DNA from: Candidatus Saccharimonadota bacterium
Lineage (GTDB): Bacteria > Patescibacteriota > Saccharimonadia > Saccharimonadales > Saccharimonadaceae
Direction of reading: 5' to 3'
Length of the DNA: 64,000 nucleotides
Assembly (NCBI GenBank): GCA_017431745.1
Contig: JAFRKK010000003.1
Coordinates: 3,927 to 67,926 of the forward strand
Both the position numbers and the translations under genes were made by a program. Positions 5,400 to 51,401 of the stretch are shown piece after piece. The notes under the pieces were generated by a model, which saw only the letters and a list, made by a program, of their open reading frames with translations, ran no database searches and had not been told where the DNA came from. The stretch's first letter is position 1, and each line of letters begins with the position of its first letter.

Positions 5400-6612
5400 A
5401 ATCTTTAAGCGAGATTAGTTTGGATTTGCCGGTTTTGCGGTCAGTGATTTCGACGGAATCTTTTTCTAAAGTTTTGTCGGAAATGACGACGCGGTAAGGG
5501 ATGCCGATGAGGTCAGCGTCGGCGAACTTTTCGCCTGGGCGAAGGTCACGGTCATCGAGAATAATGTCGTTTTCGTGGCCTTTGTAGAATTTCTCGGCTT
5601 GTTTGACGCCCTTGTCGTCGATACCAATTAAGTAATACTTATATGGGGCGACTGATTCTGGCCAGTAGAGACCTTTATCATCTGCAAAGTACTCAGCGAG
5701 TACGCCCATCAAGCGTGAAATACCAATGCCATAACAGCCCATGTAAATTTCACGGCGTTCGTTGTTGTCGTCAGTGTATTCAAGGCCAAGTGGTTGGCTG
5801 AATTTGGTGCCGAGCTTGAAGATGTTACCGACTTCGGCGGCCGTGTCTTCGGTGAGGTCGGATTTTTTGATATTAAACTCTTTTAAGACTTCAGGAATGA
5901 CAACTTCTTTGTTTAGGACAACTGATTTATCCTTAGTATAGTAGACGGTGTCTTCGCCGACGGGGAGAAGAGTTTGGAACTCGTGAGAGAATTTAGAGAA
6001 AATACCACCAGAGGCAAAACATGGGAAAGTAACATCGCCAAGACCAACACGTTCATAAACATTTAGGTAAGCTTGGAATACTTTGTCGTAAAATTTGTCG
6101 AGATCTTTTTGTGAAGTGTGGAAGCTATACAAATCCTTCATCAAGAATTCGCGACCACGCATAATGCCGGATTTGGCACGCTTTTCGTTACGGAATTTGG
6201 TTTGGAATTGATAAATAGCAAGTGGCAAATCCTTGTAGCTAGAAATATACTCCTTCATCATGTTAGTGATTGGCTCTTCGTGGGTAGGAGCAAGGCCAAC
6301 CATGCCGCCGCTACTAACTTCAGTTTTAAACCAGATGTCGACTTCTTGGTCGGACCAACGGCCAGTTTTTTCCCAGAGTTCAGGGTTTTGAAGGGCAGTG
6401 AATTGCATTTCTTCGCAGCCGATGCTGTTTAATTCGTCACGAACAATGTTTTCGATATTGTTAATAACGCGCATGCCAAATGGTAGATAGTCATAGACAC
6501 CGGCCATTTCCTTATGGATGAAGCCAGCTCTGGTTAGTAGGGCGCCATTTGTCGCAGTTTCGTCCTTGGGTGCCTCGCGCAAGGTTTTGATAAAAGTTTG
6601 TGTCATTCTCAT
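5383..6612 (-). CDS. proS: Proline--tRNA ligase (short form, no large editing insertion)
   Basis: GFIHKEMAGVYDYLP, LAPTHEE, QFQTKFRNE.R...G..RGREFLMKD.YSF, MGCYGIGISR, C-terminal anticodon-binding domain. The 3' end overlaps the pepN 3' end convergently. Confidence 0.96.
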   Translation of the reverse strand: MRMTQTFIKTLREAPKDETATNGALLTRAGFIHKEMAGVYDYLPFGMRVINNIENIVRDELNSIGCEEMQFTALQNPELWEKTGRWSDQEVDIWFKTEVSSGGMVGLAPTHEEPITNMMKEYISSYKDLPLAIYQFQTKFRNEKRAKSGIMRGREFLMKDLYSFHTSQKDLDKFYDKVFQAYLNVYERVGLGDVTFPCFASGGIFSKFSHEFQTLLPVGEDTVYYTKDKSVVLNKEVVIPEVLKEFNIKKSDLTEDTAAEVGNIFKLGTKFSQPLGLEYTDDNNERREIYMGCYGIGISRLMGVLAEYFADDKGLYWPESVAPYKYYLIGIDDKGVKQAEKFYKGHENDIILDDRDLRPGEKFADADLIGIPYRVVISDKTLEKDSVEITDRKTGKSKLISLKDFKKSL

Positions 6613-6685
6613 AATCATTTAATTATACCCCATATTGCGGCGACGGTCAAATCTTGTTATAATAGTGGTAAATGATGGAGGTATT

Positions 6686-7810
6686 ATGATAAAAGTAAAC
6701 TGTGAACCGAAAGTAGATACTGCGAAAGCGGCGGAGATTTTGAAGGAAATCGCAAAGGATAAGATGGGGGGATGGTTTAACTTGCCGCGAAAATTTGATA
6801 TGGGGGAACTCATGCGTGTGAAGGAAGCAGCTGCAAAAATTCGTGAGGAGTCAGAGGTGTTGGTGTGTATCGGGATTGGCGGTTCGTATTTAGGGCATCG
6901 AGCGATTATTGAGGCTCTTCGTCCAAAATCGGAGGTGAAAATTGTATATGCGGGAAATTCTTTGTCGCGGCGGGAACTCGACCATGCTTTAAAATTGGTC
7001 GGGAGTCATGATTTTTCGGTGAATGTGATTTCAAAGTCGGGGACGACTTTGGAGCCGGCAATTGCATTTGGTGAGTTTAAGAAAAAATTGATTGAAAAAT
7101 ATGGTGAAGAAGAAGCGTACTCGCGGATTTATGCGACGACGGATAAGAAGGAGGGTGCGCTCCATGATGAGGCGGTGGCTTGTGGCTATACGAGGTTTGT
7201 GGTGCCGGATAATATTGGTGGGCGATACTCGGTGTTAACTTCGGTAGGGCTGTTGCCGCTTGCGGTAGCTGGAGTAAATATTGATAAATTGCTTGAGGGA
7301 GCGGCAGATGCGGCAGAAAATTCAGTGGAGCCGGCAGTGAAATATGCTTGGGAAAGGTATGAACTGGGTTCGAAAGGGCTTGATACGGAGGTATTCGCGA
7401 GTTTTGAGCCGTCGACGATGTATTTTAATGAATGGTTGAAACAGTTATTTGGTGAATCGGAAGGCAAAGGCGGACAGGGAGTATTTCCGGCTTCGGTGAT
7501 TTATTCGACAGATTTGCACTCACTCGGCCAATTTATGCAGGACGGTCGGAGGAATTTGTGGGAAACAATTATTGATTATCCGACTGATGAGATGAATGCG
7601 AAGGTAGTATCGGCGGTGAGAGTAGCGCATCGAGATGGCGGGATTCCGGTGCTAGATATTACGGTACCGTCGTTTGATGAACAGGGATTTGGGGAATTGG
7701 TGTATTTCTTTGAGCTTTCGTGTGCGATTAGTGCTAAGCTATTTGGTGTGAATCCGTTTGATCAACCGGGGGTGGAAGCGTATAAAAACGAGTTACAAAA
7801 ATTGATATAA
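6686..7810 (+). CDS. pgi: Glucose-6-phosphate isomerase (compact form)
   Basis: GIGGSYLG, SKSGTTLE, GGRYSVLT, QLFGESEGK, NPFDQPGVEAYK. Start at 6686 follows RBS GGAGG. Confidence 0.95.
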   Translation: MIKVNCEPKVDTAKAAEILKEIAKDKMGGWFNLPRKFDMGELMRVKEAAAKIREESEVLVCIGIGGSYLGHRAIIEALRPKSEVKIVYAGNSLSRRELDHALKLVGSHDFSVNVISKSGTTLEPAIAFGEFKKKLIEKYGEEEAYSRIYATTDKKEGALHDEAVACGYTRFVVPDNIGGRYSVLTSVGLLPLAVAGVNIDKLLEGAADAAENSVEPAVKYAWERYELGSKGLDTEVFASFEPSTMYFNEWLKQLFGESEGKGGQGVFPASVIYSTDLHSLGQFMQDGRRNLWETIIDYPTDEMNAKVVSAVRVAHRDGGIPVLDITVPSFDEQGFGELVYFFELSCAISAKLFGVNPFDQPGVEAYKNELQKLI

Positions 7811-7811
7811 A

Positions 7812-7838
7812 ATAATCTTGACATAGTGTCAAGATTAT
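7812..7838. terminator. Hairpin between convergent pgi and tRNA-Leu
   Basis: Perfect 12-bp stem ATAATCTTGACA-TAG-TGTCAAGATTAT. Confidence 0.6.
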
Positions 7839-7961: not shown

Positions 7962-8903
7962 TTATTTAGTTATAATAGTGCCAGCTTTTCCTTCTAGGGC
8001 GGCGGCAAGGTGTTTGATGTCGGTGATAATGCCGGTTCTGCCTGGTTTTTCAGCGAACTTTGCAGCGGCTTCGATTTTGGGGAGCATAGAGCCAGCTTTG
8101 AAATAGCCGTATTTTTTGAGATGGTTTATTTCTTTGACAGTAATGTTTTTGAGGGCGGTTTGTTCTTTGGTGCCAAAATTGAGATAGGCGTTAGGGACAG
8201 CCGTGACGGATACAAAGATGTCGGCTTTGGTCAACTCGGCGAGTTTTTCGGCGGCGTAATCTTTATCAATGACGGCATCGATACCTTTGAGGCGTTTTAA
8301 CACTTTAGTGCGAGTAACTGGGATACCGCCACCGCCGGTAGCAATGACAATGACTCCATCTTCGACGAGTTCTTGGATGGATTTTTTCTCAACAATATCG
8401 ATAGGCTTAGGGGAAGCAACAACACGACGCCAACCTCGGCCGGCGTCTTCTTTGACGGTCCAACCATTTTTCTTAGCAAGAGTTTTAGCTTCTTTTTTGC
8501 TGTAGAATTGACCGATGGGTTTGGTGGGGTCTTTAAAGGCCGAATCGTTTTTGTCTACTACGACTTGAGAGACGATGGTGGCAACTTTTTTGTTTTTGCC
8601 TGCTTTTAGGAAGGCATTATTGATGGCTTGAGTCAGCCAATAGCCGATTTGCCCTTGACTCATAGCTACTGCGGTTTCGAGTGGCATAGCAGGAGCTTGG
8701 TCGGTAGCGGCCTTTTCTTCATGAATGAGGATGTTACCGATTTGAGGGCCATTACCGTGAGCAATGATGATTTCGTATTTGTTAGCAAGTTCGGCGATTT
8801 TTTCGCCGACTTCGATAGCTACTTTTTTTTGGGCTTCAGCAGTGGCTTCGCCGTTTTTTTGTAAAGCATTTCCACCGAGAGCTAAGACGATTCTTTTTTT
8901 CAT
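7962..8903 (-). CDS. arcC: Carbamate kinase
   Basis: LALGGNAL, HGNGPQIG, DAGRGWRRVVASPKP, GGGGIPV, AVIDKD, GSMLPKIEAA. Confidence 0.97.
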   Translation of the reverse strand: MKKRIVLALGGNALQKNGEATAEAQKKVAIEVGEKIAELANKYEIIIAHGNGPQIGNILIHEEKAATDQAPAMPLETAVAMSQGQIGYWLTQAINNAFLKAGKNKKVATIVSQVVVDKNDSAFKDPTKPIGQFYSKKEAKTLAKKNGWTVKEDAGRGWRRVVASPKPIDIVEKKSIQELVEDGVIVIATGGGGIPVTRTKVLKRLKGIDAVIDKDYAAEKLAELTKADIFVSVTAVPNAYLNFGTKEQTALKNITVKEINHLKKYGYFKAGSMLPKIEAAAKFAEKPGRTGIITDIKHLAAALEGKAGTIITK

Positions 8904-8988
8904 ATTTTTATTATAGCACAAGTGTTAAAATTGCTTGTGCTTAAGGTTGATTTGATGTATAATAAAAGCATAAACAAGGGCATCATAA

Positions 8989-13259: not shown

Positions 13260-13276
13260 TATGTTATAATAGCAGT

Positions 13277-14869
13277 ATGGATAAATTATCGTTTGATGGG
13301 CCGGTAGTTTTGGCAGTCTTGGATGGGGTGGGGCTAGCGCCAGATTCTGATGGGAATGCAGTATCAAAAGCGCGAACACCGTTTTTAGGCAAAGCGTCAA
13401 AGAAATATCCGCATTTGGCTCTTGATGCGTCGGGTTTGGCGGTTGGTTTGGTTGATGGACAAATGGGAAATTCAGAGGTTGGCCATAATACGCTTGGATC
13501 TGGGCAGATTATTAAACAAGGTATTGCGCGAATAAATGAGGCGTTTGAGTCTGGTGAAGTTTTTGAATCGACAGCTTGGAAAGGAGCAATATCTCGAATT
13601 GGTAGTGTAGGAACTTTACATTTTGCAGGAATTTTCTCTGATGGTGGAGTACATAGCGATATTTCGCATTTATTTAAGATGATTGGTCGGGCGTATGAAG
13701 AGGGGGTGAGAAAAATGCGAGTACATGCGATATTTGATGGACGAGACGTACCGCCGACTTCGGCGATTGAATACATTAAACAATTCGAGGATTTTGCTTC
13801 GCAGTTTGTTGATGCGGATATTAAGCTCGCATCGGGCGGAGGTCGGATGGTATGTGTGGCTGACCGTTACGAAAACGATTGGAGTGTAGTAAAAAGCGGT
13901 TTTGACATGATGAAATGGGGAAAAGCGGAGTATTATTTCCATTCGGCTGAAGAAGGTGTGTCGGCTTTACGACGAGAATATACTGGGGTGCAGGATCAGA
14001 ATTTACCACCATTTGTGATTGTAGATAATAGCGAAAAACCGGTGGGGACGATTGAGGTTGGAGACGCTTTAATTTATTTTGATTTTCGAGCGGATCGAGC
14101 GATTGAAATTGCGCAAGCTTTTACTTACTGGGATTTTCCGTATTTTGAGCGAGGGAATTATACGCCGGATGATGTGTATTTTGTGGGGATGACGGAATAT
14201 AATTCCGATACACATGTGCCGGAACATAGGCTGGTGGAGCAAATCGTAATTTCGGATACTTTAAGCCAGTTCCTAGGTTTGCACGAGGTGTCGCAACTTG
14301 CGGTATCAGAAACCGTAAAGTTTGGACATATTACATATTATTTCAACGGGAACAGCTATGAGAAAGTGTCGGGCGAAGAGCACATACAAGTGGATTCGTA
14401 CACGGAACCATTTGAAACGAGGCCTTGGATGCGCTCAGCGGAGATTACGGATGCTGTGATTTCGAATTTGGAGAAATATAAATTCGTACGGTTGAATTAT
14501 CCGGGTGGAGATATGGTGGGGCATACGGCGGATATGAATGCGACGATTGTAGCAATGGAGGCGATTGATTTGTCACTAGCGAGACTGTATCAAAAAGTTC
14601 AAGAATTAGGTGGATGCTTAATTATTGTGGCGGATCATGGGAATGCAGAGGAGCTACTTGATAATGAAGGGCGAGCTAAAACTGCGCACACAACAAACAA
14701 AGTACCGTGCATTATTTGTGATGATACGGTAAATCGTTCGCGATATGAATTGGCATCAATAATGAATCCGGGGCTTGCAAATTTGGCTGCGACGATTGCA
14801 ACACTTTTGGGATTTAACGAATACCCAAAAAGTTGGCAAGAATCTTTAATTGTAGTTAATAAATATTAG
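13277..14869 (+). CDS. gpmI: 2,3-bisphosphoglycerate-independent phosphoglycerate mutase
   Basis: LDGVG, GQMGNSEVGH, SDGGVHS, DGRDV, FRADRA, DMVGHT, ADHGNAE, HTTNKVP. Confidence 0.97.
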   Translation: MDKLSFDGPVVLAVLDGVGLAPDSDGNAVSKARTPFLGKASKKYPHLALDASGLAVGLVDGQMGNSEVGHNTLGSGQIIKQGIARINEAFESGEVFESTAWKGAISRIGSVGTLHFAGIFSDGGVHSDISHLFKMIGRAYEEGVRKMRVHAIFDGRDVPPTSAIEYIKQFEDFASQFVDADIKLASGGGRMVCVADRYENDWSVVKSGFDMMKWGKAEYYFHSAEEGVSALRREYTGVQDQNLPPFVIVDNSEKPVGTIEVGDALIYFDFRADRAIEIAQAFTYWDFPYFERGNYTPDDVYFVGMTEYNSDTHVPEHRLVEQIVISDTLSQFLGLHEVSQLAVSETVKFGHITYYFNGNSYEKVSGEEHIQVDSYTEPFETRPWMRSAEITDAVISNLEKYKFVRLNYPGGDMVGHTADMNATIVAMEAIDLSLARLYQKVQELGGCLIIVADHGNAEELLDNEGRAKTAHTTNKVPCIICDDTVNRSRYELASIMNPGLANLAATIATLLGFNEYPKSWQESLIVVNKY

Positions 14870-14932
14870 TTTTTAAAGATTGGTTTTAGGAAACTTGAAA
14901 AAAAGGCACGCGAGATGTAAAATGGGTGTATT

Positions 14933-15760
14933 ATGATTACGAAAGCGATTATTCCGGTAGCGGGTTGGGGGACAAGAAGGCTACCAATTACCAAGATTAT
15001 AGAAAAATCAATGCTTCCGGTAGGCAACCGCCCATTAGTGGATTATTCGGTACAAGAATTAATTGCCGCTGGAGTAAAAGACATCTACATGGTGATTTCT
15101 AATGTGGAGCCTTGCCAAGTACAAGAGTTTTATAAGGATAATTTGGCGTTAAATCAATATTTGATTGAGCGTGGGAAAGAAGACAGATTGGAGCTTGCAA
15201 AGACATTACCGGATGATGTGACAATTCATTATACAGTACAGGATCCTTCGGGTAAATATGGTACGGCGGTACCGATTGCAATGGTAGTGGAGGAATATAA
15301 TATTGACGAGCCGGTACTGGTGTTTATGGGTGATGATTTTATTTGGAATCCGGGTGGTGAATCGGCGGCGAGTGCTTTGATTAATTCTTTGCAGAACGAA
15401 AATGATTCGGCGATTTTAGGAGTTGAAATTGACAAATCTAAAGTAGAAAAATACGGTGTTTTGTCAGTTGAGGATGACAAATTGACGAACGTAGTGGAGA
15501 AACCAACTCCAGAAGAAGCACCATCTAATATGATTAACGTATCTAAATATATTATGTCACCTGAGTTGTTACAAAAAATCGTGAAATATGTGGCTGAAAA
15601 CGATTTCGGTCCGAAGGATCAGGAATATATGGTGACGGATCCAATTGATGAGTATATTAGAGATGGTGGTATAATGCGTGTGGCTCCGACTTCGGGGGAA
15701 TATTTGGATGGTGGCTCGGTGGAGGGGTGGTTACATGCAAATAATGTTGTATGCGGATAA
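14933..15760 (+). CDS. Sugar-phosphate nucleotidyltransferase, GalU-like (UTP--glucose-1-phosphate uridylyltransferase)
   Basis: KAIIPVAGWGTRRLPITKIIEKSMLPVG, GTA, MGDD, YGV...VVEKP. Confidence 0.85.
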   Translation: MITKAIIPVAGWGTRRLPITKIIEKSMLPVGNRPLVDYSVQELIAAGVKDIYMVISNVEPCQVQEFYKDNLALNQYLIERGKEDRLELAKTLPDDVTIHYTVQDPSGKYGTAVPIAMVVEEYNIDEPVLVFMGDDFIWNPGGESAASALINSLQNENDSAILGVEIDKSKVEKYGVLSVEDDKLTNVVEKPTPEEAPSNMINVSKYIMSPELLQKIVKYVAENDFGPKDQEYMVTDPIDEYIRDGGIMRVAPTSGEYLDGGSVEGWLHANNVVCG

Positions 15761-15777: not shown

Positions 15778-15804
15778 CTAGCACTCTTGACATGAGAGTG
15801 CTAA
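15778..15804. promoter_or_regulatory. CIRCE element (HrcA operator) overlapping the -35 of the clpC promoter
   Basis: CTAGCACTC-N9-GAGTGCTAA (consensus TTAGCACTC-N9-GAGTGCTAA). TTGACA at 15787-15792 lies in the spacer, with TATAAT at 15810-15815 17 bp downstream. Confidence 0.93.
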
Positions 15805-15824
15805 TTTTGTATAATGGGGGTATC

Positions 15825-18293
15825 ATGCAGGAAGAATTTAGTGAAATAATGAATAAATTGTCCGAAAATGCACGATTTGCGTTGCAGAAATCGGATTATT
15901 ATAGTAAAAGATACAATAATGGTTACATGGGGACAGAACACCTGCTACTTGGAATAATGTCGATGGATAATTCGATGGGTGCGAAAATTTTGCGAGGGGA
16001 GGGTGTGACGACAGAGGAGGTGGAAAAAGCACTGAATAAGGTGGCGGTGGAGGTGCCAGGCTCAGATATGGCTATGATGTCACTTTCCGAGGCGGTGATT
16101 TTGACTTTACGAATGGCGCAAAACTATACAAAAGAGCAAGGTTTGGGAGTGATAGGGACGGAGCATATATTATATGCATTAATAAGCCAACCAAATTCAC
16201 GAGCATCTTTGATTCTCACGGGGTTGAAGGTTGATGTTGAGAAAGTACTAGACGCGATTGAAGAATTGGTGGAAGAGCAAACGAAAGACGAGAAGTTGAA
16301 GGCGGAAAAAGCCAAATATATGAACAGAAAGCAGTTTAGGTTTTTGTCGCGATACGGAAAGGATTTAACGGAAGAAGCGAAGCAGGGACGACTTGATACG
16401 GTAATTGGTCGAGAAAATGAAATTGAAAGAGTGGTGACGGTGCTTAGTCGCCGAACGAAGTCGAATCCAGTTTTGATTGGCGAAGCGGGTGTTGGTAAAA
16501 CTGCTATTGTAGAGGGGCTTGCTACGAGAATTGTAAAAAATGAGGTTCCGGGTTCTTTGATTGGTAAACACATTTGGCAAGTAGATTTGAGTTCTTTGGT
16601 TGCTGGCACGAAGTTCCGCGGTGAATTTGAGGAAAGAATAAAGGGTGTGATTGACGAGGCGACGGGAGATGATTCGGTTTTGCTGTTCATTGATGAGTTA
16701 CATTTGCTTTCGGGGGCCGGATCAAGCGAAGGCTCGATGGATGCGGCGAACATTTTAAAACCAGCCTTGGCACGAAATTCGATTAATTTGATTGGGGCGA
16801 CAACTTTAGATGAATATCGTAAGTCAATCGAAAAAGATAAGGCACTTTCGCGGCGTTTTCAGACTGTGATGGTGGAAGAACCATCGGCAGCAGTGACCTT
16901 ACGAATTTTGAAGGGGATTAAAGGACATTACGAAAAACATCATGGAGTAGTGATTCCAGATGCTTGTTTAGAAACGGCTATTGTGATGAGTCAGCGATAC
17001 ATTAACGACAGATTTATGCCGGATAAAGTGATTGATATTATTGATGAGGCATCAGCGATTTGTAAAGTGGCGGCGGATAAAAAGGGTGGCGGAAAATATA
17101 AAAAACTGAAAATTGAGAAGTCGATGCTCGAGAATAAAATTGAATCGGCGGCAGAAGCGGAAGATTATGAAAAGGCGGCTGGCTATAAAACCGAATTGGC
17201 ACGACTTGAAAAAGAGATTAAAAAGCTAGAAAAATCGGGTGTTAAAGAAACTACAAATCCGAAATTAACGGAAGAACATTTGGCGACAGCGGTGTCTCTT
17301 AAAACCGGAATTCCGGTATCTAAGGTGCACGGGTCAGAGATGAAAATGCTAGTTAATTTAGAGGCTGAATTGAAGAAATCGATTATTGGCCAGGATGAAG
17401 CTGTGCGTGCAGTGTCAAAGGCGATTCGACGTGGGCGCTCGGGCATTGCAGACTCTCGCAGGCCGATTGGTTCGTTCCTATTTATGGGGCCGACGGGCGT
17501 AGGTAAGACGGAACTTGCTCGAGTAATCGCGAGGGAAGTTTTTGGTGGCGATAATGCGTTGGTGAAAATTGATATGAGCGAATTTGGTGAAAAGCATAAT
17601 GTTTCTAGGTTGGTTGGCGCACCAGCAGGCTACATTGGTTATGATGATGGGGGAAAATTGACGGAAGCGGTGCGGCGCAAACCATATTCAGTAATCCTGT
17701 TTGATGAAATTGAAAAGGCGCATCCGGATGTATTTAATTTGCTTTTGCAGATTTTGGAAGATGGCGTGTTGACGGACGGGCAAGGGAATAAGATTAAGTT
17801 TAATAATACGATTGTGATTTTGACTTCGAACCTTGGTTCGGCGGATATGTATCGTGAATCGGAGCTTGGTTTTACGGCTAAGACTGCAAAGGACAAAAAA
17901 GCTTTGGCGGAAGAATATGAAGAAAATAAGTCTTATGCAATGAAGGCTTTGAAAAAGGTAATGCGACCAGAGCTAATTAATCGTTTGGATAACATTTCCG
18001 TTTTCCATGCCTTAACACGAAAAGATGTTGAGAAAATATTTGATAATTTGATTGACGATTTAAAAAAGAGGCTTGCGACGAAGGGGATTGGCATTAAGAT
18101 TGCTGACTCGGCGAAGAAATATTTGATTGATGAAGGTTATGACCCGAAGAATGGGGCAAGACCGCTTCGGCGTAAGATTGAGGATGAGGTTGAATCGTTG
18201 CTCTCGGAAGAGATTATTGCCGGGAAATTAGTGAAAGGCGATATTCCGACTTTGAAACTCGTAAAAGGTAAACTTAAATTAGTAAAGGAGTAA
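15825..18293 (+). CDS. clpC: ATP-dependent Clp protease ATP-binding subunit ClpC
   Basis: Clp N-domain repeats (GTEHLL, GTEHIL), NBD1 GEAGVGKT, short UVR-type middle domain (AAEAEDYEKAA), NBD2 GPTGVGKT, GARPLRR. Confidence 0.93.
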   Translation: MQEEFSEIMNKLSENARFALQKSDYYSKRYNNGYMGTEHLLLGIMSMDNSMGAKILRGEGVTTEEVEKALNKVAVEVPGSDMAMMSLSEAVILTLRMAQNYTKEQGLGVIGTEHILYALISQPNSRASLILTGLKVDVEKVLDAIEELVEEQTKDEKLKAEKAKYMNRKQFRFLSRYGKDLTEEAKQGRLDTVIGRENEIERVVTVLSRRTKSNPVLIGEAGVGKTAIVEGLATRIVKNEVPGSLIGKHIWQVDLSSLVAGTKFRGEFEERIKGVIDEATGDDSVLLFIDELHLLSGAGSSEGSMDAANILKPALARNSINLIGATTLDEYRKSIEKDKALSRRFQTVMVEEPSAAVTLRILKGIKGHYEKHHGVVIPDACLETAIVMSQRYINDRFMPDKVIDIIDEASAICKVAADKKGGGKYKKLKIEKSMLENKIESAAEAEDYEKAAGYKTELARLEKEIKKLEKSGVKETTNPKLTEEHLATAVSLKTGIPVSKVHGSEMKMLVNLEAELKKSIIGQDEAVRAVSKAIRRGRSGIADSRRPIGSFLFMGPTGVGKTELARVIAREVFGGDNALVKIDMSEFGEKHNVSRLVGAPAGYIGYDDGGKLTEAVRRKPYSVILFDEIEKAHPDVFNLLLQILEDGVLTDGQGNKIKFNNTIVILTSNLGSADMYRESELGFTAKTAKDKKALAEEYEENKSYAMKALKKVMRPELINRLDNISVFHALTRKDVEKIFDNLIDDLKKRLATKGIGIKIADSAKKYLIDEGYDPKNGARPLRRKIEDEVESLLSEEIIAGKLVKGDIPTLKLVKGKLKLVKE

Positions 18294-18881: not shown

Positions 18882-18896
18882 GTGTATAATGAGAAT

Positions 18897-19325
18897 ATGA
18901 AAGTATTATGGACTGACGGAAGTGCAAGCCCGAATCCAGGGCCAGGGGGCTATGCGGTGATTGAGGTGGATGGAGATGAAGCTCGGCCAGTTGTTTTGGG
19001 TTGCGAAAAAGAATCGACGAATATTCGGATGGAAGCTCAAGCGATGATTGCGGCAATTAAATATGCTGGCGAAGAGGGTTGTAAAATACATTCAGATTCG
19101 GAATTTTGGATTAAGGTGTTGACCAAATGGGCACCCGGTTGGAAAGATAGAGGCTGGAAAAAAACAAAAGGCGAGATTAAGAATTTAGATTTGGTGCAAG
19201 AACTGTATGGGCTTTATTGTAAATACCCGGTGGAACTCGTTTGGGTAAAAGGTCACGTGGGCACTCAGTATAATGAACTCGCGGATGAGTGGGCTAATAA
19301 AGCACGACTTGGCGAGAAGTTGTGA
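18897..19325 (+). CDS. rnhA: Ribonuclease HI
   Basis: WTDGSASPNPGPGG, TNIRME, SDS, WKDRGWK, WVKGH...NELADEWA. Confidence 0.96.
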   Translation: MKVLWTDGSASPNPGPGGYAVIEVDGDEARPVVLGCEKESTNIRMEAQAMIAAIKYAGEEGCKIHSDSEFWIKVLTKWAPGWKDRGWKKTKGEIKNLDLVQELYGLYCKYPVELVWVKGHVGTQYNELADEWANKARLGEKL

Positions 19326-20618: not shown

Positions 20619-20638
20619 ATTTATGGTATAATTAGGTT

Positions 20639-21820: not shown

Positions 21821-22093
21821 ATGTCACATGTAAAAGCTGGCGGTACCGCCAAGAATATCCATAACAATGCTGGCCAGCGCCTAGGCGTGAAGCGTTTTGG
21901 TGGCCAGAAAGTCAAGAACGGTGAAGTTTTAGTGCGTCAGACTGGTGCTACGAAGATCGCTGGGCCTGGTACTTATATGTCACGTAATTTCACAATTCAC
22001 GCTGCGAAGGATGGTGTAGTCACTTTCGTAAAAACGAAAAAAACACACTTTTCGGGCAAATCTCTTCCAAGAGTGCGCGTAGAAGTTAGATAA
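21821..22093 (+). CDS. rpmA: 50S ribosomal protein L27
   Basis: MSHVKAGG...GQRLGVKRFGGQ...GEVLVRQTG...TIHAAKDGVV. Confidence 0.96.
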   Translation: MSHVKAGGTAKNIHNNAGQRLGVKRFGGQKVKNGEVLVRQTGATKIAGPGTYMSRNFTIHAAKDGVVTFVKTKKTHFSGKSLPRVRVEVR

Positions 22094-22095: not shown

Positions 22096-22120
22096 AATAA
22101 CCCCCGAGGGGGTTATTTTT
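22096..22120. terminator. Intrinsic terminator after rpmA
   Basis: AATAACCCCC-GA-GGGGGTTATT followed by a T run. Confidence 0.85.
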
Positions 22121-22174
22121 TATTTTTTGTGCGTATTTGTCCTTTTTCCCCTAGTATGCTAAAATAGATGTAGT

Positions 22175-23185: not shown

Positions 23186-23208
23186 ATAGTTTGTGGTATA
23201 ATCAAGAT

Positions 23209-31388: not shown

Positions 31389-31453
31389 TAAATAATAAAC
31401 ATAAATAGATTACAATATGTTATAATTATAGTAATATTAACAGGAGGAATTTT

Positions 31454-34355: not shown

Positions 34356-34413
34356 GTATTTAATTATAGCACAGAAAAAAATCCCGATGGGATTTTGAGG
34401 AAATTTTTGGGAT

Positions 34414-34671: not shown

Positions 34672-34737
34672 ATAGATGTATTATACCATAGATTTTGTTT
34701 TTTGCATAAAAAATGAATTAATACTATAATAGTGGGT

Positions 34738-36774: not shown

Positions 36775-37342
36775 TTATTATTATAGCATAGGTTTCGACA
36801 CCGAGACGCTTTAAGGATAAGATAGCGATGACGATAGCAAGAATGGTGACGATAGTACTGACAGTGCCGGCGATGGCGAGGCTGCCAGTGCTAAAAATGG
36901 CACCGATAAGAGGAGTGAGTAAGGTGGCGCCGCAAGTGGGGCAACCAGCGCCGAGAGCGATTAGTCCAGTGATAATACCGGCTTTCTCGAGACTTTCGGC
37001 ATTTTGACCCTTTTTTGTGCGCTTTTTGTCCCAGAGGAGAGTAATGAGGCCGATAAGGATTCCTTGGAGTGTGGCGATTAAAAAGATTGGAAGCCAGTCA
37101 AGAAACGGTTGATTAATGCCAAAAATTGCAAGGAAACTGCTCCAGATGATCTGGAGATTTTGCGGGAAACCGAGAGCACCCATGAGCTCAAATTTGCTGG
37201 TACCGCCGGACAAAAGGTTCATGAGCATGCCAAAAAAGATAAAGCTAGGGATTGCCCCGTACCAAAATTTACGTTCTTTGGTGGCGAGCAAGATACCTTT
37301 ACCCGCTAAAACAAATTCGTCGAGCCATTTCCTCCAATTCAT
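36701..37342 (-). CDS. Hypothetical 4-TM membrane protein with a CxxC motif
   Basis: Hydrophobic segments and GAGCPTCGA. 3' end overlaps the start of the DsbA-like gene. Confidence 0.75.
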   Translation of the reverse strand: MNWRKWLDEFVLAGKGILLATKERKFWYGAIPSFIFFGMLMNLLSGGTSKFELMGALGFPQNLQIIWSSFLAIFGINQPFLDWLPIFLIATLQGILIGLITLLWDKKRTKKGQNAESLEKAGIITGLIALGAGCPTCGATLLTPLIGAIFSTGSLAIAGTVSTIVTILAIVIAILSLKRLGVETYAIIINEKYLAKKAKQTSKEKKEKSEKSS

Positions 37343-37494
37343 ATAGAATATATTATCATAAGTTTTTATGGTTTGTCAAGAATTATTTGTTCGGTTTTTG
37401 GGTTTTTACCCCTGTTAAAGTAAAAACATATTAGAACATAAAGATTTTTAAAAATCAATATTGACATTGATTTCGCCTATGCTAAAATAGAGTT

Positions 37495-37620: not shown

Positions 37621-37654
37621 TATTTTTAACGATAAGTATGATATAATAGTTAGT

Positions 37655-38689
37655 ATGAAATTATCCAGAAGAATCGATAAGATTCTGATTTCGGTGATAA
37701 TTGTTACTTTGGGGCTGATTTTTGGGTGTCTTTATAAGGTATATTCGACTGCTACTTATGCGGAGGGAGAGGAAGCGGTTGAAATGACGGGGGCGAAGTT
37801 TGTGACTTTTTATGATGGTGGTAAGAAATTGACGGTGCGAACAGAGGCAGACACGGTGAAAGATGCTTTGGCGCGAGCGGATGTTGTAATTAATGAGGGG
37901 GATATTGTGGATCCGGGATTAGAAACAGAGATAAATGCGGATAATTTTTACATTAATATTTATCGAGCACGGCCAGTGGTAGTACGTGATGGTGCGGTGG
38001 AAAAATATTTGATGTCGGCGAGTTATGACCCTGCGACGGTGGCTAGAGAGGGTGGCTTTACGATTTATGATGGAGATGAAATTGCGCTTGCGATGAATAC
38101 TGAATTCCTAGAAGCAGGGGTGGCGACTGTTTACCAGATTACGCGAAATGGTGGTCGGACAATAACAGTGGATGAGGAAATTGCATTTAATGAAGAGTTT
38201 GTGGAAGATGGAGCTTTGGCGGCGGGGAAAACTGAGGTACGTCAACTAGGCGAAGTGGGATTGATGCGAAGAAGTTATAATGTGAATTTTGTGGATGGAG
38301 TAGAGGTGACCAGGGAGCTGGTTTCGGAGGAAATGGTACGGGCGCCGATGCCGCGAATTACAGCAAGAGGTACGAAGGTGGAAATTGCAGCAGTAGCGGC
38401 GACGGGAACTTGTGCAGATTGGATTCGGGCAGCGGGAGTAGCTGAGGCGGACGTGCAGGCGGCCTTGTATTTGATTAATCATGAGAGTGGTTGTAGGTGG
38501 AATGCGCGGAACGCATCGTCGGGGGCTTACGGAATTCCACAGGCTTTGCCAGGGTCAAAAATGGCTTCGGCGGGGGCGGACTGGGAAACGAACCCGATTA
38601 CGCAGATTAAGTGGATGTCGGGATATGTGTCGCGGTATGGTGGTTGGCAAGGGGCGGTTAATTTCTGGAATGCGCATGGTTGGTACTAA
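37655..38689 (+). CDS. DUF348 + G5 + lytic transglycosylase-like (YabE/Rpf-like) cell-wall protein
   Basis: TM anchor, TVKDALARADV repeats, G5 domain (EVRQLGEVG...RELVSEEMVRAP), C-terminal INHESGCRWNARNASSGAYGIPQALPG. Confidence 0.85.
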   Translation: MKLSRRIDKILISVIIVTLGLIFGCLYKVYSTATYAEGEEAVEMTGAKFVTFYDGGKKLTVRTEADTVKDALARADVVINEGDIVDPGLETEINADNFYINIYRARPVVVRDGAVEKYLMSASYDPATVAREGGFTIYDGDEIALAMNTEFLEAGVATVYQITRNGGRTITVDEEIAFNEEFVEDGALAAGKTEVRQLGEVGLMRRSYNVNFVDGVEVTRELVSEEMVRAPMPRITARGTKVEIAAVAATGTCADWIRAAGVAEADVQAALYLINHESGCRWNARNASSGAYGIPQALPGSKMASAGADWETNPITQIKWMSGYVSRYGGWQGAVNFWNAHGWY

Positions 38690-39514: not shown

Positions 39515-39543
39515 AAAAGTTTAAATGATGATATAATGGGGGT

Positions 39544-40788
39544 ATGTTAGATGTGAAGTTTATCAGAGAAAATCTGGAACTCGTGGAAAAGTCTGCGAAA
39601 GAAAAAGGATACAAAATAAATATTGCTGAACTGTTAGAACTGGATGATAAGCGGAAGGCTGATTTGGCGGAAGTGGAGGAGTTAAGAAAGGCGCGAAACG
39701 AAACAGCGGCAAAGATGAAGGGCGGAAAGCCATCGCCAGAATTAATTGCAGAAGGAAAGCGCATCAAGGAAGAACTATCGGCAAAAGAACAGGCGCTTAC
39801 TTCATTGGAAACAGAGGTAAAAGAAGGTTTGAAAAAAGTACCGAATATTATCTTTGAGGATGTACCACTAGGTGGTGAGGAAGATTCAGTAGAGATTAAA
39901 AAATGGGGCGAAAACCACGAAACCGGAGTAGATCATTTGGATTATGCAGTGAGCCGGGATTGGGTTGATTTTGAACGTGGTGCGAAAGTGGCAGGTGCGA
40001 AGTTTTATTATTTGAAGGGTGGTTTGGCGTTCCTCGAGAACGCTTTGCTTCAATACGGTTTGGCTAAAGTTCAGGAGCATGGTTTTACTTATATGACGGT
40101 GCCAGATATGGTGTCATCGAGAATATTGGAGGGTTGCGGGTTTAATCCACGAAGCTCTGAGCAATCGGATGAGTATTTCATTGAAGGGGAAGATCTCGCG
40201 ATGATCGCGACGGCGGAGATGCCACTAACTGGTTATCACATGGATGAGATTATTGATGAAGATAAACTGCCCCTACTTTATGCTGGATATTCACCGTGTT
40301 TTAGGAAAGAAGCGGGGGCATATGGTAAATATACGCGGGGGCTATTTCGGGTGCATCAGTTTAATAAGCTAGAGATGTATATTTTCTGTTTGCCAGAGAA
40401 ATCGAAGGAGATGCACGAAAAATTGTTAGAAATTGAAGAAGATATTTGGCAAGGTTTGGGAGTGCCGTATCATATAGTGAATATTGCGGCAGGGGACCTT
40501 GGTGCGCCGGCGGCGAAGAAATATGATATGGAATACTGGTCGCCAGTTAATCAGAAATATCAGGAGATTACTTCGTGTTCGAACTGTACAGATTTCCAAG
40601 CGCGGGCAGTGAATTGTCGAGTGCGTCGAAAAGATGGAAGTGTGGAGTTTGTCCACACTTTGAATGGAACAGCGATTCCTTTGGCCAGAGCGCTAGTGGT
40701 AATGTTGGAAAACTTTGCGACTCCGGATGGAAAATTTAAGGTGCCGGAGGTATTGAGACCGTATTTAAATAATAAGGAGGAATTATAA
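39544..40788 (+). CDS. serS: Serine--tRNA ligase
   Basis: MLDVKFIR, IATAE, FRKEAG...RGLFRVHQFNKLE, EITSCSNCTDFQAR, HTLNGTA. Confidence 0.97.
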   Translation: MLDVKFIRENLELVEKSAKEKGYKINIAELLELDDKRKADLAEVEELRKARNETAAKMKGGKPSPELIAEGKRIKEELSAKEQALTSLETEVKEGLKKVPNIIFEDVPLGGEEDSVEIKKWGENHETGVDHLDYAVSRDWVDFERGAKVAGAKFYYLKGGLAFLENALLQYGLAKVQEHGFTYMTVPDMVSSRILEGCGFNPRSSEQSDEYFIEGEDLAMIATAEMPLTGYHMDEIIDEDKLPLLYAGYSPCFRKEAGAYGKYTRGLFRVHQFNKLEMYIFCLPEKSKEMHEKLLEIEEDIWQGLGVPYHIVNIAAGDLGAPAAKKYDMEYWSPVNQKYQEITSCSNCTDFQARAVNCRVRRKDGSVEFVHTLNGTAIPLARALVVMLENFATPDGKFKVPEVLRPYLNNKEEL

Positions 40789-45433: not shown

Positions 45434-46634
45434 TAAATTGATTCCCTCGGTCGTAGACGTTTTCGAACATGTCGAAAGAGGCGGCGGCGGGGGACATGAC
45501 TATGATAGACGGGGACATGCTTTCGGCTTCGGATTTGGCGGTGCTGATTGCTTCATTGAGCGATTCAGCTAGGATGAATCTGTCGTCTTGATATTTTTTG
45601 GTTAGTTCGTGGCCGGATTCGCCGATGAGGACGATTTTTTTGACTTGGGGAGCCTGCAGAATCTCGTAGATTTCAGGGAGATCTTCGTAATTGGTTTTGT
45701 CGCGACCACCGAGGATAACTACTAGGTTGTCATTTGGGAAGGCGTTGATTGCAACGCGAGTTGAGGATGGATTGGTTGAGAAATTGTCGTCGTAATATTT
45801 AACGCCGTTGATTTCACGGAGGTATTCGAGGCGATGGGGGAGACCTTTGAAGTTTTTGAGACCTTCTATGATGGTGGCTTGATGGTCCTTCAAATATTCA
45901 TCTGGTGATATATTTAAGAGACAGGAAACTGCGGAAATAGCGGCGATAGCGTTGTTTTCATTGTGAACGCCAGGTAGAGTGATAGCGTTTTTTACCTCTG
46001 TTGGGATGGTGAATGGATAGGGGATTTTCTGGGCTTTTGAGGTGTCTGCGATTTTGGTGGTTTCGGGGTTTTCCTTGAAGTAAATGAGGTAATCATCTGG
46101 GGTTTGGTATTTGGTGATATTGGCCTTGGCATTTAGGTAATCAGCGTAGTCTTTATGAATGTTGAGATGATCGGGCTCTAATTGTCCGAGAATGGCGATA
46201 TGAGGAGATTTGGTGACGTCCCAGAGTTGAAAACTAGATAATTCATAGACTACAACAGAGGTAGGTTTGAGCTCATCTAGGATATCAATAGCAGGGTTGC
46301 CGATGTTGCCGACAAGATAGGAATCTTGGCCTTCGGCATCAAGAAGAGCTTTGATAAACGAGCAAGTGGTGCCTTTGCCTTTGGTGGCGGTGACGCCAAT
46401 AATTGGGCAAGGACAGTGGTCAAAAAAGTATTTAGTGAGGCTGGATTCGTTTTTTAGCCCCAGGGGTGGGACGCTGGGGCTTCGCAAAATTATATCATAG
46501 GATGAATAATCCTTGTTTATTATTTCGTTGTAGGTGAAATCTTCAAAAACATCGATTTCAGCGTTAAATTTGTCCTTGAAATATTTTTCGGCAGATTTGC
46601 CTTCTTTGCCGTAACCGAGCAATGCTATTCTCAT
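45411..46634 (-). CDS. murD: UDP-N-acetylmuramoyl-L-alanine--D-glutamate ligase
   Basis: LLGYGKEG, GVTATKGKGTT, GNIG, ELSSFQL, DHLNIH, GLPHRLE, DDNFSTN, SPAAASFDMF...RG. Confidence 0.96.
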   Translation of the reverse strand: MRIALLGYGKEGKSAEKYFKDKFNAEIDVFEDFTYNEIINKDYSSYDIILRSPSVPPLGLKNESSLTKYFFDHCPCPIIGVTATKGKGTTCSFIKALLDAEGQDSYLVGNIGNPAIDILDELKPTSVVVYELSSFQLWDVTKSPHIAILGQLEPDHLNIHKDYADYLNAKANITKYQTPDDYLIYFKENPETTKIADTSKAQKIPYPFTIPTEVKNAITLPGVHNENNAIAAISAVSCLLNISPDEYLKDHQATIIEGLKNFKGLPHRLEYLREINGVKYYDDNFSTNPSSTRVAINAFPNDNLVVILGGRDKTNYEDLPEIYEILQAPQVKKIVLIGESGHELTKKYQDDRFILAESLNEAISTAKSEAESMSPSIIVMSPAAASFDMFENVYDRGNQFKLLINKL

Positions 46635-46654
46635 AAACTCAATTATACCATAGG

Positions 46655-46732: not shown

Positions 46733-47638
46733 TTCTGATACGCTGTGGGTTTCCATAAGTTTAGCGCGGAGTTCTTTGGCTCCCGGGAAGTTGTTGATGT
46801 AAATCTTGAAAAAATGCTTCAGAGGCTCGTAAGGAATATGAGAATATTCCTCATATAGGTCTAAGTGCATTTTTAGAAGTTTCATCAGCTCATCGCGGGT
46901 GGGGGTGTGGTCGGTGAAGCAGTAGGGGTTTTGAAAAACACCGCGGCCAATCATGAAGCCGTCTACCTCTGAGTATTTGGTGTGGAGTTCTAGAGCTTGG
47001 GTGCGGTCTTTGATGTCGCCGTTGATTATCAATTTAGTTTCGGGGCTGATTTCGTTGCGTAACTTGATAATTTCAGGGATTAGCTCATAGTGGGCGGGGA
47101 CTTTGCTCATCTCTTTTTTGGTGCGGAGATGAACGGTGAGAGCGGCGGGATGCTCAGTGAGCAAAAGAGGCAACCATTCACGATATTCTTCGGGTTGGCT
47201 CCAGCCGAGGCGGGTTTTGACGGAAACGGGGAGATTAGTGCTACTAGCAGCGTTCCTAAAACATTCTACAGCGAGGTCAGGGGTTTTAATCATGGCAGCG
47301 CCGCCACCAGCTTTGTTGACGTGTTTGTCAGGGCAGCCAAAATTTAAATCTACCCCTGAAAATCCAAGTGACGCAAGCGCCTGGCAAGTTGCCGAAAAAT
47401 GTTCGGGGTTTTTGCCCCAGATTTGAGCGATGATGGGTTTGTCGGAAGGAGCGATTTCGAGGCGTTCCAAAGCGTTTTCGCGGCCCTTTTCAGAGGCGTA
47501 AGATGAGACATTGGTGAATTCAGTAAAAAATAAATCTGGACGACCGGCGTGCGCGATGACCTGACGAAACATAATATCCGTTACACCCTCCATGGGGGCA
47601 AGAATTAGAAAAGGTTTTTTTAGCTCATTCCAAATCAT
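46712..47638 (-). CDS. dus: tRNA-dihydrouridine synthase (Dus family)
   Basis: LAPMEGVTD, FTEF, DLNFGCP, SVKTRLG, VHLRT, NGDI, MIGRG. Start reassigned to ATG 47638. Confidence 0.94.
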   Translation of the reverse strand: MIWNELKKPFLILAPMEGVTDIMFRQVIAHAGRPDLFFTEFTNVSSYASEKGRENALERLEIAPSDKPIIAQIWGKNPEHFSATCQALASLGFSGVDLNFGCPDKHVNKAGGGAAMIKTPDLAVECFRNAASSTNLPVSVKTRLGWSQPEEYREWLPLLLTEHPAALTVHLRTKKEMSKVPAHYELIPEIIKLRNEISPETKLIINGDIKDRTQALELHTKYSEVDGFMIGRGVFQNPYCFTDHTPTRDELMKLLKMHLDLYEEYSHIPYEPLKHFFKIYINNFPGAKELRAKLMETHSVSEARKIIS

Positions 47639-47790
47639 GAGGCATATTTTAACATAAAACCCCTGTAAAATCAAGCGGGATGGGGCTTGAATTATTTGAA
47701 GAAGTATAATAAGATAGTAGATACCTCTCGAAAAATTGTGACAGAGGGTGATCCGTTATTTCTAGGATAGTACCTTTAAAGGAGGGTTGT

Positions 47791-49598: not shown

Positions 49599-49612
49599 GG
49601 AGGGGATGTAAC

Positions 49613-50263
49613 ATGAGTTATTGTAGGCCAGTAAACGAGATTGGTTATCTTGGACCGGACTGGATTCCGAGTAAACTTAAGAAGTATGCACGTGATAGTT
49701 ATGGAGAGTTGGATTTTGTACTTTTGGTACGAAATGGCGGTATTGATGGGTTTATGTATGACGACAATATCCCGGAAAATGAAAAACTAGAGCTTTCTGA
49801 CATGTCGGCGGAAGTACTAGAGATGCTGACGATAAATGGCTTTATTAGGCCAATAATCAGAAGGATGCTGTTTTCGGCGGACGTGCCAAACTCGGAGCTG
49901 TATTTTATCAGAAAATACATTATAGAACCAAAATTAATTGAAGAGTTCGCACTAAGGCACGAGTCTTTGGGCGGCTATCAGGATGTAGACGTCGAAGACT
50001 ACAGAGAGGCCCTGATGCCTTACTTTTATTCCAACAAAGCATATGAAAAATATGATCTTTGCTGCGATGAGCGGATAGAAGCAACAATTAATTTGCTGTC
50101 AAACTATCTTGATGAAGATGAGCTCTATGATGTCATGCTTGACATAAGGGGTGCCGGCGATTTTATCTGCGATAAGAAGATTTTTAAAAGGGTCTGTGGT
50201 AAATTGAAGGACGAATGTCTTGATTTTATACCAAAACTAGTACAGGCGTTTGAGATGTACTAA
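49613..50263 (+). CDS. Hypothetical acidic cytoplasmic protein
   Basis: RBS AAGGAGGGG; terminator AATCCCTAGC-TAAG-GCTAGGGATT follows. Confidence 0.8.
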   Translation: MSYCRPVNEIGYLGPDWIPSKLKKYARDSYGELDFVLLVRNGGIDGFMYDDNIPENEKLELSDMSAEVLEMLTINGFIRPIIRRMLFSADVPNSELYFIRKYIIEPKLIEEFALRHESLGGYQDVDVEDYREALMPYFYSNKAYEKYDLCCDERIEATINLLSNYLDEDELYDVMLDIRGAGDFICDKKIFKRVCGKLKDECLDFIPKLVQAFEMY

Positions 50264-50324
50264 TCATTTAATCCCTAGCTAAGGCTAGGGATTTTTCATA
50301 GGTTTTCGTGATATAATAAGGGAT

Positions 50325-51401
50325 ATGCAGGAACTTGCTAAGAAATTAGATGTGCTTCGGGGGGAGTTTTTGAAAGCGTATGAGAAATTAGCGATTGATG
50401 AGAAACTAGGCGAGGTAGCTATTTTGGAGAAGGAAGTGGCAGAGCCGGATATTTGGAAAGATGTGGCGGTGGCAACAGAGAAAAACCAGGAGCTCGCGAA
50501 GCTTTCTGATGAGGTGCAACCGTGGGTGCTTTTAAAAACGCAGATTGGGGACTTGGCAGAGCTACTAGAAATGGCAGATGAGGATTTGAAAGATGAAATT
50601 AAGGGGCAGATTGAGGCGATGGAGGCTCAACTTGAGGAATTGAAGAAATCTTTGAGATTTCAGGGGCCGTATGATGCAAATAATGCGATTTTGAGGATTA
50701 CTTCAGGGGCAGGTGGAACGGAGGCGATGGATTGGGCTTCGATGCTGGAGCGGATGTATCTGAGGTTTTTTGAATCGAAAGGATTTAAAGCGGTTTGTCT
50801 TGAAAGAGTTGTCGGCGAAGAAGCAGGAATTAAGACCGCGGTTTATGAGGTGTCGGGCGTGAATGTTTATGGGACGTTGAAATCTGAACATGGGGTGCAT
50901 CGGTTAGTGAGACTCTCGCCCTTTAATGCAAATAATTTGAGGCAGACTTCGTTTGCGCTGGTGGAGGTGTTGCCGGTGATTAAGGCTTCGACAGAGGTAG
51001 AAATCGATGAAAAGGATTTGCGTATTGATGTTTATCATGCTGGTGGACATGGTGGCCAATCGGTAAATACAACGAATTCGGCGGTGAGGATTACGCATTT
51101 GCCGACAAATACAGTGGTGGCAATTCAAAATGAAAGGTCGCAACTTCAGAATAAAGAGAAGGCGATGGAGATACTTAGGGGTAAATTAGTGCAGATGCAA
51201 TTGGAACAACATGCTGCGACGATTGGAGAATTACGCGCTGGTGAGTCAGCAGGTTGGGGGCAACAGATTAGGAATTACGTGTTGCAACCTTATAAACTAG
51301 TGAAGGATACTAGAACGGGCTACGAATCAAAAGAACCAGATAAAGTGCTTGATGGCGAGATTGATGGTTTTATTGATTCGTATCTAGAAAATATGGTTTA
51401 G
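50325..51401 (+). CDS. prfB: Peptide chain release factor 2 (continuous ORF)
   Basis: GAGGTEAMDWA, EHGVHRLVRLSPF (SPF), GGHGGQSVN (GGQ), WGQQIRNYVLQPY. Confidence 0.97.
   Translation: MQELAKKLDVLRGEFLKAYEKLAIDEKLGEVAILEKEVAEPDIWKDVAVATEKNQELAKLSDEVQPWVLLKTQIGDLAELLEMADEDLKDEIKGQIEAMEAQLEELKKSLRFQGPYDANNAILRITSGAGGTEAMDWASMLERMYLRFFESKGFKAVCLERVVGEEAGIKTAVYEVSGVNVYGTLKSEHGVHRLVRLSPFNANNLRQTSFALVEVLPVIKASTEVEIDEKDLRIDVYHAGGHGGQSVNTTNSAVRITHLPTNTVVAIQNERSQLQNKEKAMEILRGKLVQMQLEQHAATIGELRAGESAGWGQQIRNYVLQPYKLVKDTRTGYESKEPDKVLDGEIDGFIDSYLENMV

Follow-up and report, generated by a model that had tools for sequence, protein, structure and literature searches.

In the bacteria assigned to group C by GeneMarkS-2, mainly Actinobacteria and Deinococcus-Thermus, leaderless transcription is frequent (Lomsadze et al. 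2018, PMC6028130), and this group is characterized by a Pribnow box 6 to 8 nucleotides (nt) from the starts of first genes, by 25 to 50% of operons being leaderless, and by Shine-Dalgarno (SD) sites in front of internal genes (PMC6028130). Transcriptome mapping has revealed more than 25% leaderless transcripts in Mycobacterium tuberculosis, M. smegmatis, Corynebacterium glutamicum, Deinococcus deserti, and Streptomyces coelicolor (PMC6028130). A survey in 2011 of the 953 bacterial genomes then available interpreted genes with a TA-like signal some 10 bp ahead of the start codon as leaderless ("TA-led" genes) and reported that the mode changes between orthologues with growing phylogenetic distance (Zheng et al. 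2011, PMC3160421). Here, we analyzed a 64,000-nt stretch of a Candidatus Saccharimonadota genome (the window; positions 3927-67926 of contig C3, JAFRKK010000003.1, in assembly GCA_017431745.1), in which an extended −10 box, TGnTATAAT, recurs 5 to 9 nt before start codons. We consider it highly probable, judging from the sequence, that these boxes drive leaderless transcription units, with leaders of 0 to 3 nt, in about a quarter of the genes of this genome.

Scanning the complete genome (744 kb, 13 contigs, ca. 43% guanine plus cytosine [GC], 97% complete) without recourse to gene annotation, we determined the gap between each of 1,082 TATAAT hexamers and a following ATG. This revealed that ATG follows the hexamer 105 times at a gap of 6 nt and 52 times at a gap of 7 nt, compared with about 20 times at each other gap, and the ATGs at gaps 6 and 7 open 91 and 34 open reading frames (ORFs) of at least 100 amino acids (aa), respectively, versus 1 to 9 at neighboring gaps. 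An earlier sequence-only reading of the window had placed the predicted +1 on or next to the start codon and had proposed such a motif-distance scan as a check; the genome-wide peak at gaps 6 and 7 is in line with it. With the same pattern reversed as the control, TATAATN6ATG occurred in 105 copies versus 5, and TGNTATAATN6ATG in 82 copies versus 0. Intergenic DNA beside start codons is AT-rich, and relaxed −10 matches were found at about 9% of decoy starts, both of which would favor an artefact of composition or selection. Given the 5 versus 105 copies for the reversed pattern, the sharpness of the peak at gaps 6 and 7, and the conservation of the TG and of a T at −1 among randomized neighboring bases (see below), we regard that explanation as practically negligible.

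For gene counts, we prepared our own gene set (684 genes that together span 91% of the sequence) and classified the starts, with decoy rates of about 9% false positives for the leaderless type and about 32%, mostly 4-nt cores, for the SD type. The classifier assigned 227 genes to the leaderless type, 361 to the SD type, and 96 to neither, and among the leaderless-type genes ATG was the start codon in 212 of the 227. Estimated from the excess over flanking gaps, the background-corrected leaderless count is about 150 to 180 of the 684 genes (22 to 26%). Among 405 putative operon-first genes, 165 were leaderless type, and the background-corrected estimate for genes needing their own promoter is about 40%. 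The gaps of the leaderless-type genes ranked 6 > 7 > 8-9 > 5 in frequency, an order that parallels the known distances from the −10 box at which Escherichia coli RNA polymerase prefers to start. Of the genes in the "neither" group, 46 overlap the upstream gene or sit at most 15 nt behind it, and these are probably translationally coupled.

Alignment of 191 sites, for whose choice the TG extension was not a criterion, gave the consensus T-(A/G)-TGnTATAAT, N6/7, (T)ATG. The TG was present at −15/−14 in 69 to 86% of the sites, a weak TTG lay 17 bp upstream of the box, and the base at −1 to the ATG was T in 62 to 75%. RNA polymerase prefers a pyrimidine at −1 and a purine at +1 of its start sites, and extended −10 (TGn) sigma-70 promoters with a weak −35 are found in Gram-positive bacteria and in genome-reduced bacteria such as mycoplasmas. 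The whole genome encodes one sigma-70 family protein (C6:27367-28341, 324 aa, with regions 1.2, 2, 3, and 4), so a single promoter type is expected. The start of the sigma-70 gene itself carries a weak −10-like box, TATACT, at a gap of 8.

The same box also occurs where no start codon is adjacent. About 30 of the 47 tRNA genes have TGnTATAAT 7 to 16 nt ahead of the mature 5′ end, a spacing from which pre-tRNA 5′ leaders of only about 0 to 9 nt are expected; in the window, such boxes precede tRNA-Pro (646), tRNA-Leu (7939, minus strand), and tRNA-Phe (34671, minus strand). Leaderless tRNAs made without RNase P, as in Nanoarchaeum, were considered and ruled out, since an RNase P RNA is present at C6:80392-80725 and the tRNA spacings correspond to short leaders. 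The genome contains 352 copies of TGnTATAAT: 128 at gaps 5 to 9 of a coding sequence (CDS), 92 at 10 to 60 nt upstream of one (72 of these 92 with an SD), 30 before tRNAs, 24 at 61 to 150 nt upstream, and 78 without a start within 150 nt. About half of the recognizable CDS promoters are thus fused to the start codon. In front of SD-led genes, the same −10 box lies 20 to 30 nt upstream, as at gene 31454, ppa, and secA. With respect to operon position, 53% of divergent genes were leaderless type versus 13% of genes lying at most 15 nt behind a same-strand gene, and 64% of the latter have an SD.

These observations bear on whether the box might instead be a non-SD ribosome-binding or translation-enhancer element (the "group B" of GeneMarkS-2) within longer mRNAs whose promoters lie further upstream. 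A distance of 6 to 8 nt is also typical of ribosome-binding site (RBS) motifs. A/U-rich translation enhancers occur in other bacteria, and a classical bipartite −35/−10 scan stayed barely above shuffled sequences (52 versus 44.6 and 51 versus 37.4), missing most of these promoters. The latter result is, however, what a weak −35 predicts for extended −10 promoters. Moreover, a ribosome-binding element is hard to reconcile with the rarity of the motif before operon-internal genes (13% versus 53%), the TGn extension together with a weak −35 at 17 bp, the same motif before untranslated tRNA genes, and its position 20 to 30 nt upstream of SD-led genes, where a promoter role is necessary; in addition, the genome has a canonical anti-SD and makes use of AGGAGG sites. 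We therefore regard this explanation as very unlikely. The dependence on operon position, the tRNA genes, the upstream boxes of SD-led genes, and the single sigma-70 indicated that the motif serves as a promoter and does not bind ribosomes.

We then considered whether the promoters could be real while translation begins downstream of the adjacent ATG, on ordinary short-leader mRNAs. Start calling without experiments is uncertain, and in 80 of the 227 leaderless-type genes the ORF contains alternative in-frame starts. Nevertheless, precisely at gap 6 the ATG shows a roughly 5-fold enrichment, which would have no explanation if it were unused, and just 5% of the leaderless-type genes, compared with 3% of the SD genes, contain an in-frame start further downstream that has a strong SD. 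Family profiles aligned from residues 1 to 10 of the predicted window proteins: the serS profile (1-418) matched residues 1-408, the arcC profile (1-315) matched residues 1-313, and at the profile N-termini residue and profile positions paired as 1/1 for proS, 2/1 for galU, 8/2 for hisS, and 4/7 for rnhA.

Conservation across species likewise begins at the ATG. In a comparison genome of the same genus (G004; median 76% aa identity, 287 reciprocal best hits), leaderless-type status was kept in 88 of 110 orthologues (odds ratio [OR] 40, p=9e-36), and 67 of these start at the same residue. For the 30 pairs with a gap of 6 in both genomes, identity of the upstream and spacer bases was 20 to 45%, i.e., at the random level, versus 87 to 90% for the TG, 77% for the T at −1, 100% for the ATG, and 73 to 83% for positions +4 to +6, while the near-100% identity of the hexamer was imposed by the selection of the pairs. 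This identity pattern suggested that the coding sequence begins at the adjacent ATG, and on the same comparison the TG, the −1 T, and the spacing are apparently under selection. A downstream start is thus highly improbable in our view.

The SD route exists alongside. The 3′ end of the 16S rRNA carries a canonical, intact anti-SD, GGATTACCTCCTTTCT (also given as ACCTCCTTTCT). The 16S in the assembly consists of its last ca. 100 nt alone, at the edge of contig C5 (first ca. 190 nt, minus strand), where it was located by string search; the Rfam small-subunit model RF00177 returned no 16S gene in the genome. A short homologue of ribosomal protein S1, a 365-aa ORF with four S1 domains, lies at C5:19624-20619. 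Both features had been named in the sequence-only reading as things to look for, and with the anti-SD intact and S1 present, both initiation routes would be available. SD cores of at least 5 nt precede 210 genes, and AGGAGG-type sites stand ahead of the genes of the ribosomal operon, of internal genes, and of roughly half the first genes. These sites lie 4 to 10 nt before the starts and, with the canonical anti-SD, have the features of SD-dependent initiation; SD-led first genes have short leaders, of about 13 to 25 nt. By comparison, the 5- to 9-nt spacer between box and ATG leaves no space for a normally spaced SD.

Taken together, the logo, the conservation, and the tRNA genes show boxes that behave as real promoters and place the predicted +1 on or next to the ATG, with SD-led genes coexisting, as the sequence-only reading had it. 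From the observed motif, its spacing, promoter character, and conservation, and the match of ATG to protein N-terminus, we infer the transcription start and the mode of translation as follows. The single sigma-70 would read the extended −10 element T-R-TGnTATAAT, with a weak −35, whose box ends 6 or 7 nt (less often 5, 8, or 9 nt) before the ATG. With the box at −12 to −7 and a 6-nt gap, the A of the ATG would be +1, and RNA polymerase would start on this A, usually after a T, that is, with a pyrimidine at −1 and a purine at +1. On the resulting 5′-AUG mRNA, ribosome and initiator tRNA would bind the terminal AUG with no need of SD pairing, and at operon-internal genes and the remaining first genes AGGAGG-type sites would pair with the anti-SD. 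The gap-9 sites (clpC, tyrS, proS, the galU-like gene, and 22175) probably give leaders of 2 to 3 nt.

Several points weigh against this scheme. The assignment of +1 to the A of the ATG is a prediction from geometry. Gaps 8 and 9 are just modestly above background in the relaxed scan, and they imply leaders of 1 to 3 nt rather than zero, while at the DsbA-like gene, with its gap of 5, the box lies rather close for transcription to begin on this A. In addition, the gene and start calls are home-made, with the decoy rates given above (ca. 9% for the leaderless class and ca. 32% for the 4-nt SD class).

The sequence-only reading had further proposed that two initiation regimes split by gene class, housekeeping genes being leaderless and ribosomal, surface, and island genes SD-led, and as an account of initiation mode this competes with operon position. 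In its favor, operon-first genes of the leaderless type more often had a homologue in the partial genomes of three other families than SD-led ones (51% versus 29%; OR 2.6, p=3e-5). Among proteins of at least 450 aa, the conserved share was 70% for leaderless, 29% for strong-SD, and 9% for weak-SD genes, and the bias survived length stratification. In the window, four tRNA-synthetase genes are leaderless type, and AGGAGG-type sites were indeed seen in the upstream sequences of the ribosomal-operon genes and of the genes of the 47.8-50.3 kb island. Against it, operon position explains more. Ribosomal genes are mainly operon-internal, and SD use on them is expected anyway. In the window, four housekeeping genes (ppa, secA, pgi, and ksgA) are SD-led, while membrane protein 23209 and the secreted-type protein 37655 are leaderless type. 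First genes were separated neither by N-terminal hydrophobicity (22% of leaderless versus 28% of SD-led, p=0.23) nor, to speak of, by codon adaptation (0.624 versus 0.634, p=0.04). Thus, of the proposed split, a soft bias toward conserved genes among first genes held up, while the main divider is operon position (53% versus 13%), and we consider it unlikely that gene class in place of operon position sets the mode. Conserved core genes lean leaderless and large lineage-specific proteins lean toward SD, which is a bias, not a partition.

For the window, each plausible gene was inspected over 50 nt of upstream sequence and all candidate starts were scored; gene names are from NCBIfam and Pfam matches. 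All 19 sites named in the sequence-only reading had the spacing it reported (seven at gap 6, seven at gap 7, one at gap 5, and four at gap 9), with boxes TATAAT or TAAAAT, most of them extended by TGn. The leaderless-type modules, two of which were added to that list, are as follows, together with one contrasting SD-led gene.

6610-6630, minus strand: proS; gggTATAAT, 9 nt, ATG at 6612; added to the list
8901-8918, minus strand: arcC; TGcTATAAT-N6-ATG, ATG at 8903
13262-13279, plus strand: gpmI; TGtTATAAT-N6-ATG, ATG at 13277
14915-14935, plus strand: galU-like gene; aTGTAAAAT, 9 nt, ATG at 14933; short leader predicted
15778-15827, plus strand: clpC promoter; controlling inverted repeat of chaperone expression (CIRCE) at 15778-15804, whose loop holds the −35 TTGACA, then a 17-nt spacer, TATAAT at 15810-15815, 9 nt, ATG at 15825
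18882-18899, plus strand: rnhA; gTGTATAAT-N6-ATG, ATG at 18897; module begins right behind the clpP stop codon
19323-19343, plus strand: tyrS; TGaTATAAT, 9 nt, ATG at 19341
20624-20641, plus strand: methyltransferase gene; TGgTATAAT-N6-ATG, ATG at 20639
22157-22177, plus strand: 60-aa ORF 22175; TGcTAAAAT, 9 nt, ATG; terminator hairpin at 22096-22117 just upstream
23194-23211, plus strand: membrane protein gene 23209 (LPG_synthase_TM); TGgTATAAT-N6-ATG
27890-27907, plus strand: gene 27905, 260-aa protein of no known family; TGgTATAAT-N6-ATG
28692-28710, plus strand: hisS; TGcTATAAT-N7-ATG, ATG at 28708
31420-31456, plus strand: contrast gene 31454; gtTATAAT, ca. 20-nt leader with AGGAGG, ATG; ppa (32615, minus strand) and secA (41192) are built alike
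34353-34371, minus strand: histidine-kinase gene; TGcTATAAT-N7-ATG, ATG at 34355
34722-34740, plus strand: rarA; TATAAT-N7-ATG, ATG at 34738; without TG extension
36772-36788, minus strand: DsbA-like thioredoxin gene; TGcTATAAT-N5-ATG, ATG at 36774
37340-37358, minus strand: gene 37342, 213-aa protein of no known family; TGaTAATAT-N7-ATG, a weaker −10 (4/6); added to the list
37639-37657, plus strand: gene 37655, aggregation-promoting-factor C-terminal domain; TGaTATAAT-N7-ATG
39529-39546, plus strand: serS; TGaTATAAT-N6-ATG, ATG at 39544
46632-46650, minus strand: murD; TGgTATAAT-N7-ATG, ATG at 46634
47636-47654, minus strand: dus; TGtTAAAAT-N7-ATG, ATG at 47638
50309-50327, plus strand: prfB; TGaTATAAT-N7-ATG, ATG at 50325

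At proS, the box-ATG gap implies a leader of about 3 nt, and another ATG, at 6618, is separated from the box by only 3 nt. The genes downstream of leaderless-type ones include clpP (18297, with an AGGAG SD) behind clpC, hpf (40789, with AGGAGG) behind serS, and glyS (30045), an SD-led internal gene, behind hisS. The clpC operator, CTAGCACTC-N9-GAGTGCTAA, deviates by 1 mismatch from the HrcA operator consensus and encloses the −35 TTGACA within its loop; with a predicted leader of about 2 to 3 nt, this CIRCE is part of the promoter instead of a 5′ untranslated region (UTR).

Side observations were made at several of these genes. On the minus strand, the stretch 33322-34355 holds a gene for a 228-aa histidine-kinase core with kinase-domain matches alone (residues 11-223) and, in a 4-nt overlap with it, one for a receiver-only response regulator of 116 aa. 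These two and recO, which comes next on that strand, share one leaderless-type promoter. A 90-aa ORF (21821-22093), which by eye resembles ribosomal protein L27, starts at the base directly after the methyltransferase stop codon (21820), leaving no space for a promoter, so that translational coupling is probable. The prfB gene (release factor 2; 50325-51401) is an uninterrupted 358-aa ORF without a programmed +1 frameshift site. The arginine deiminase genes arcC, arcB, and arcA and an arcD-like gene are encoded in the genome; together with the genome size, and with the 0.5 to 2.1 Mb seen in all 150 sampled genomes of the phylum, they fit an ultrasmall bacterium of the Patescibacteria, probably a Saccharibacterium. 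A scan of gpmI against other genomes returned solely homologues of 33 to 38% identity from other phyla and no close relatives, and for the serS protein there are no encoding contigs on record. GC skew, (G−C)/(G+C), is 0.12 to 0.34 on the plus strand throughout 1-64000, unusually strong and uniform, and the majority of the window genes lie on this strand.

To place the module phylogenetically, exact patterns were counted in related genomes. TGNTATAATN6ATG occurred in 36 to 106 copies in each of 19 genomes of the genus (this one included) and in just 3 to 10 copies in 12 other families of the order. The restriction to the genus that this count suggested was ruled out: in genomes of three other families, compared over 200 to 400 kb each, the same peak was present at gaps 6 to 9, with a more degenerate box (TG in 24 to 43% versus 73 to 75% in the genus). 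The background-corrected leaderless share, estimated from the counts at gaps 6 to 9 minus the mean of flanking gaps, was about 12 to 15% of genes in the other families versus 19 to 21% in the genus. In 60 other families of the order, TATAATN6ATG exceeded its control 2.3-fold (median 17 versus 7, maximum 35). In 144 genomes from other classes of the phylum, the excess over control was 2.1-fold, and it was individually significant in 37 of the 144, with a maximum excess of 47 versus 100 here. The signature therefore occurs broadly across the phylum, with its sharpest form in this genus. Conservation of the mode in orthologues was strong within the genus (OR 40) and lower against the family of G024 (OR 3.6, p=0.004), and it was not significant against two other families.

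A broader reading of these data is possible, and we offer it tentatively, as a minority prospect. Leaderless initiation may be general, and possibly ancestral, in Patescibacteria, and in this genus it may have been sharpened to a near-invariant 18-nt TGnTATAAT-N6-ATG module that is read by a single sigma factor and favors conserved core genes, with lineage-specific, possibly acquired genes being SD-led. If this is true, starts in many candidate phyla radiation (CPR) genomes annotated with SD-centered gene finders would be systematically wrong, and regulation based on 5′ UTRs would be largely unavailable to these organisms.

For this genome itself, a longest-ORF rule would over-extend 80 of the 227 leaderless-type genes by a median of 33 nt. 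Cases in the window are arcC, for which the longest-ORF start, TTG 8921, is judged wrong, rnhA, and gene 23209, which would start at TTG 23191. With no predicted 5′ UTR on about 40% of the transcription units and leaders of about 13 to 25 nt elsewhere, control by leader riboswitches or small RNAs would be largely excluded, and operators must lie in the promoter, as does the CIRCE at clpC. Genetic tools for Saccharibacteria borrow the tuf and rpsJ promoters (PMC10633639), which an 18-nt TGnTATAAT-N6-ATG cassette could replace. The architecture is mechanistically ordinary and only mildly surprising for the lineage; its use lies in annotation and tool building.

A full-text literature search found no paper on leaderless mRNAs or transcription start site maps in Saccharibacteria or Patescibacteria. 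The architecture is known in other phyla, and the present analysis would extend it to an ultrasmall episymbiont lineage. As in group C and TA-led genomes, a −10 box stands a few nt (here with a peak at gaps 6 and 7) before many first genes that lack an SD and start mostly with AUG, and internal genes use an RBS. The resemblance to group C covers the Pribnow distance, the leaderless share of operons, and the SD sites on internal genes, whereas this is an ultrasmall CPR-type genome of 43% GC with a near-perfect extended TGnTATAAT and a tight 6-nt mode. As described for TA-led genes, orthologues share the mode less often the more distant the genomes are (OR 40, then 3.6, then not significant). 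Like the mapped transcriptomes, this genome is predicted to combine more than 25% leaderless transcripts with SD-led genes; those species, however, are of high GC and were mapped by differential RNA sequencing (D. deserti also by proteomics), whereas this genome is AT-leaning and its leaderless starts are predicted from sequence. With extended −10 promoters it shares the TG one base upstream of the hexamer (at −15/−14 in about 75 to 80% of the sites), a −35 that is weak, and one sole housekeeping sigma factor in which region 3 is present, and it differs from them in that about half of its recognizable CDS promoters are fused to a start codon.

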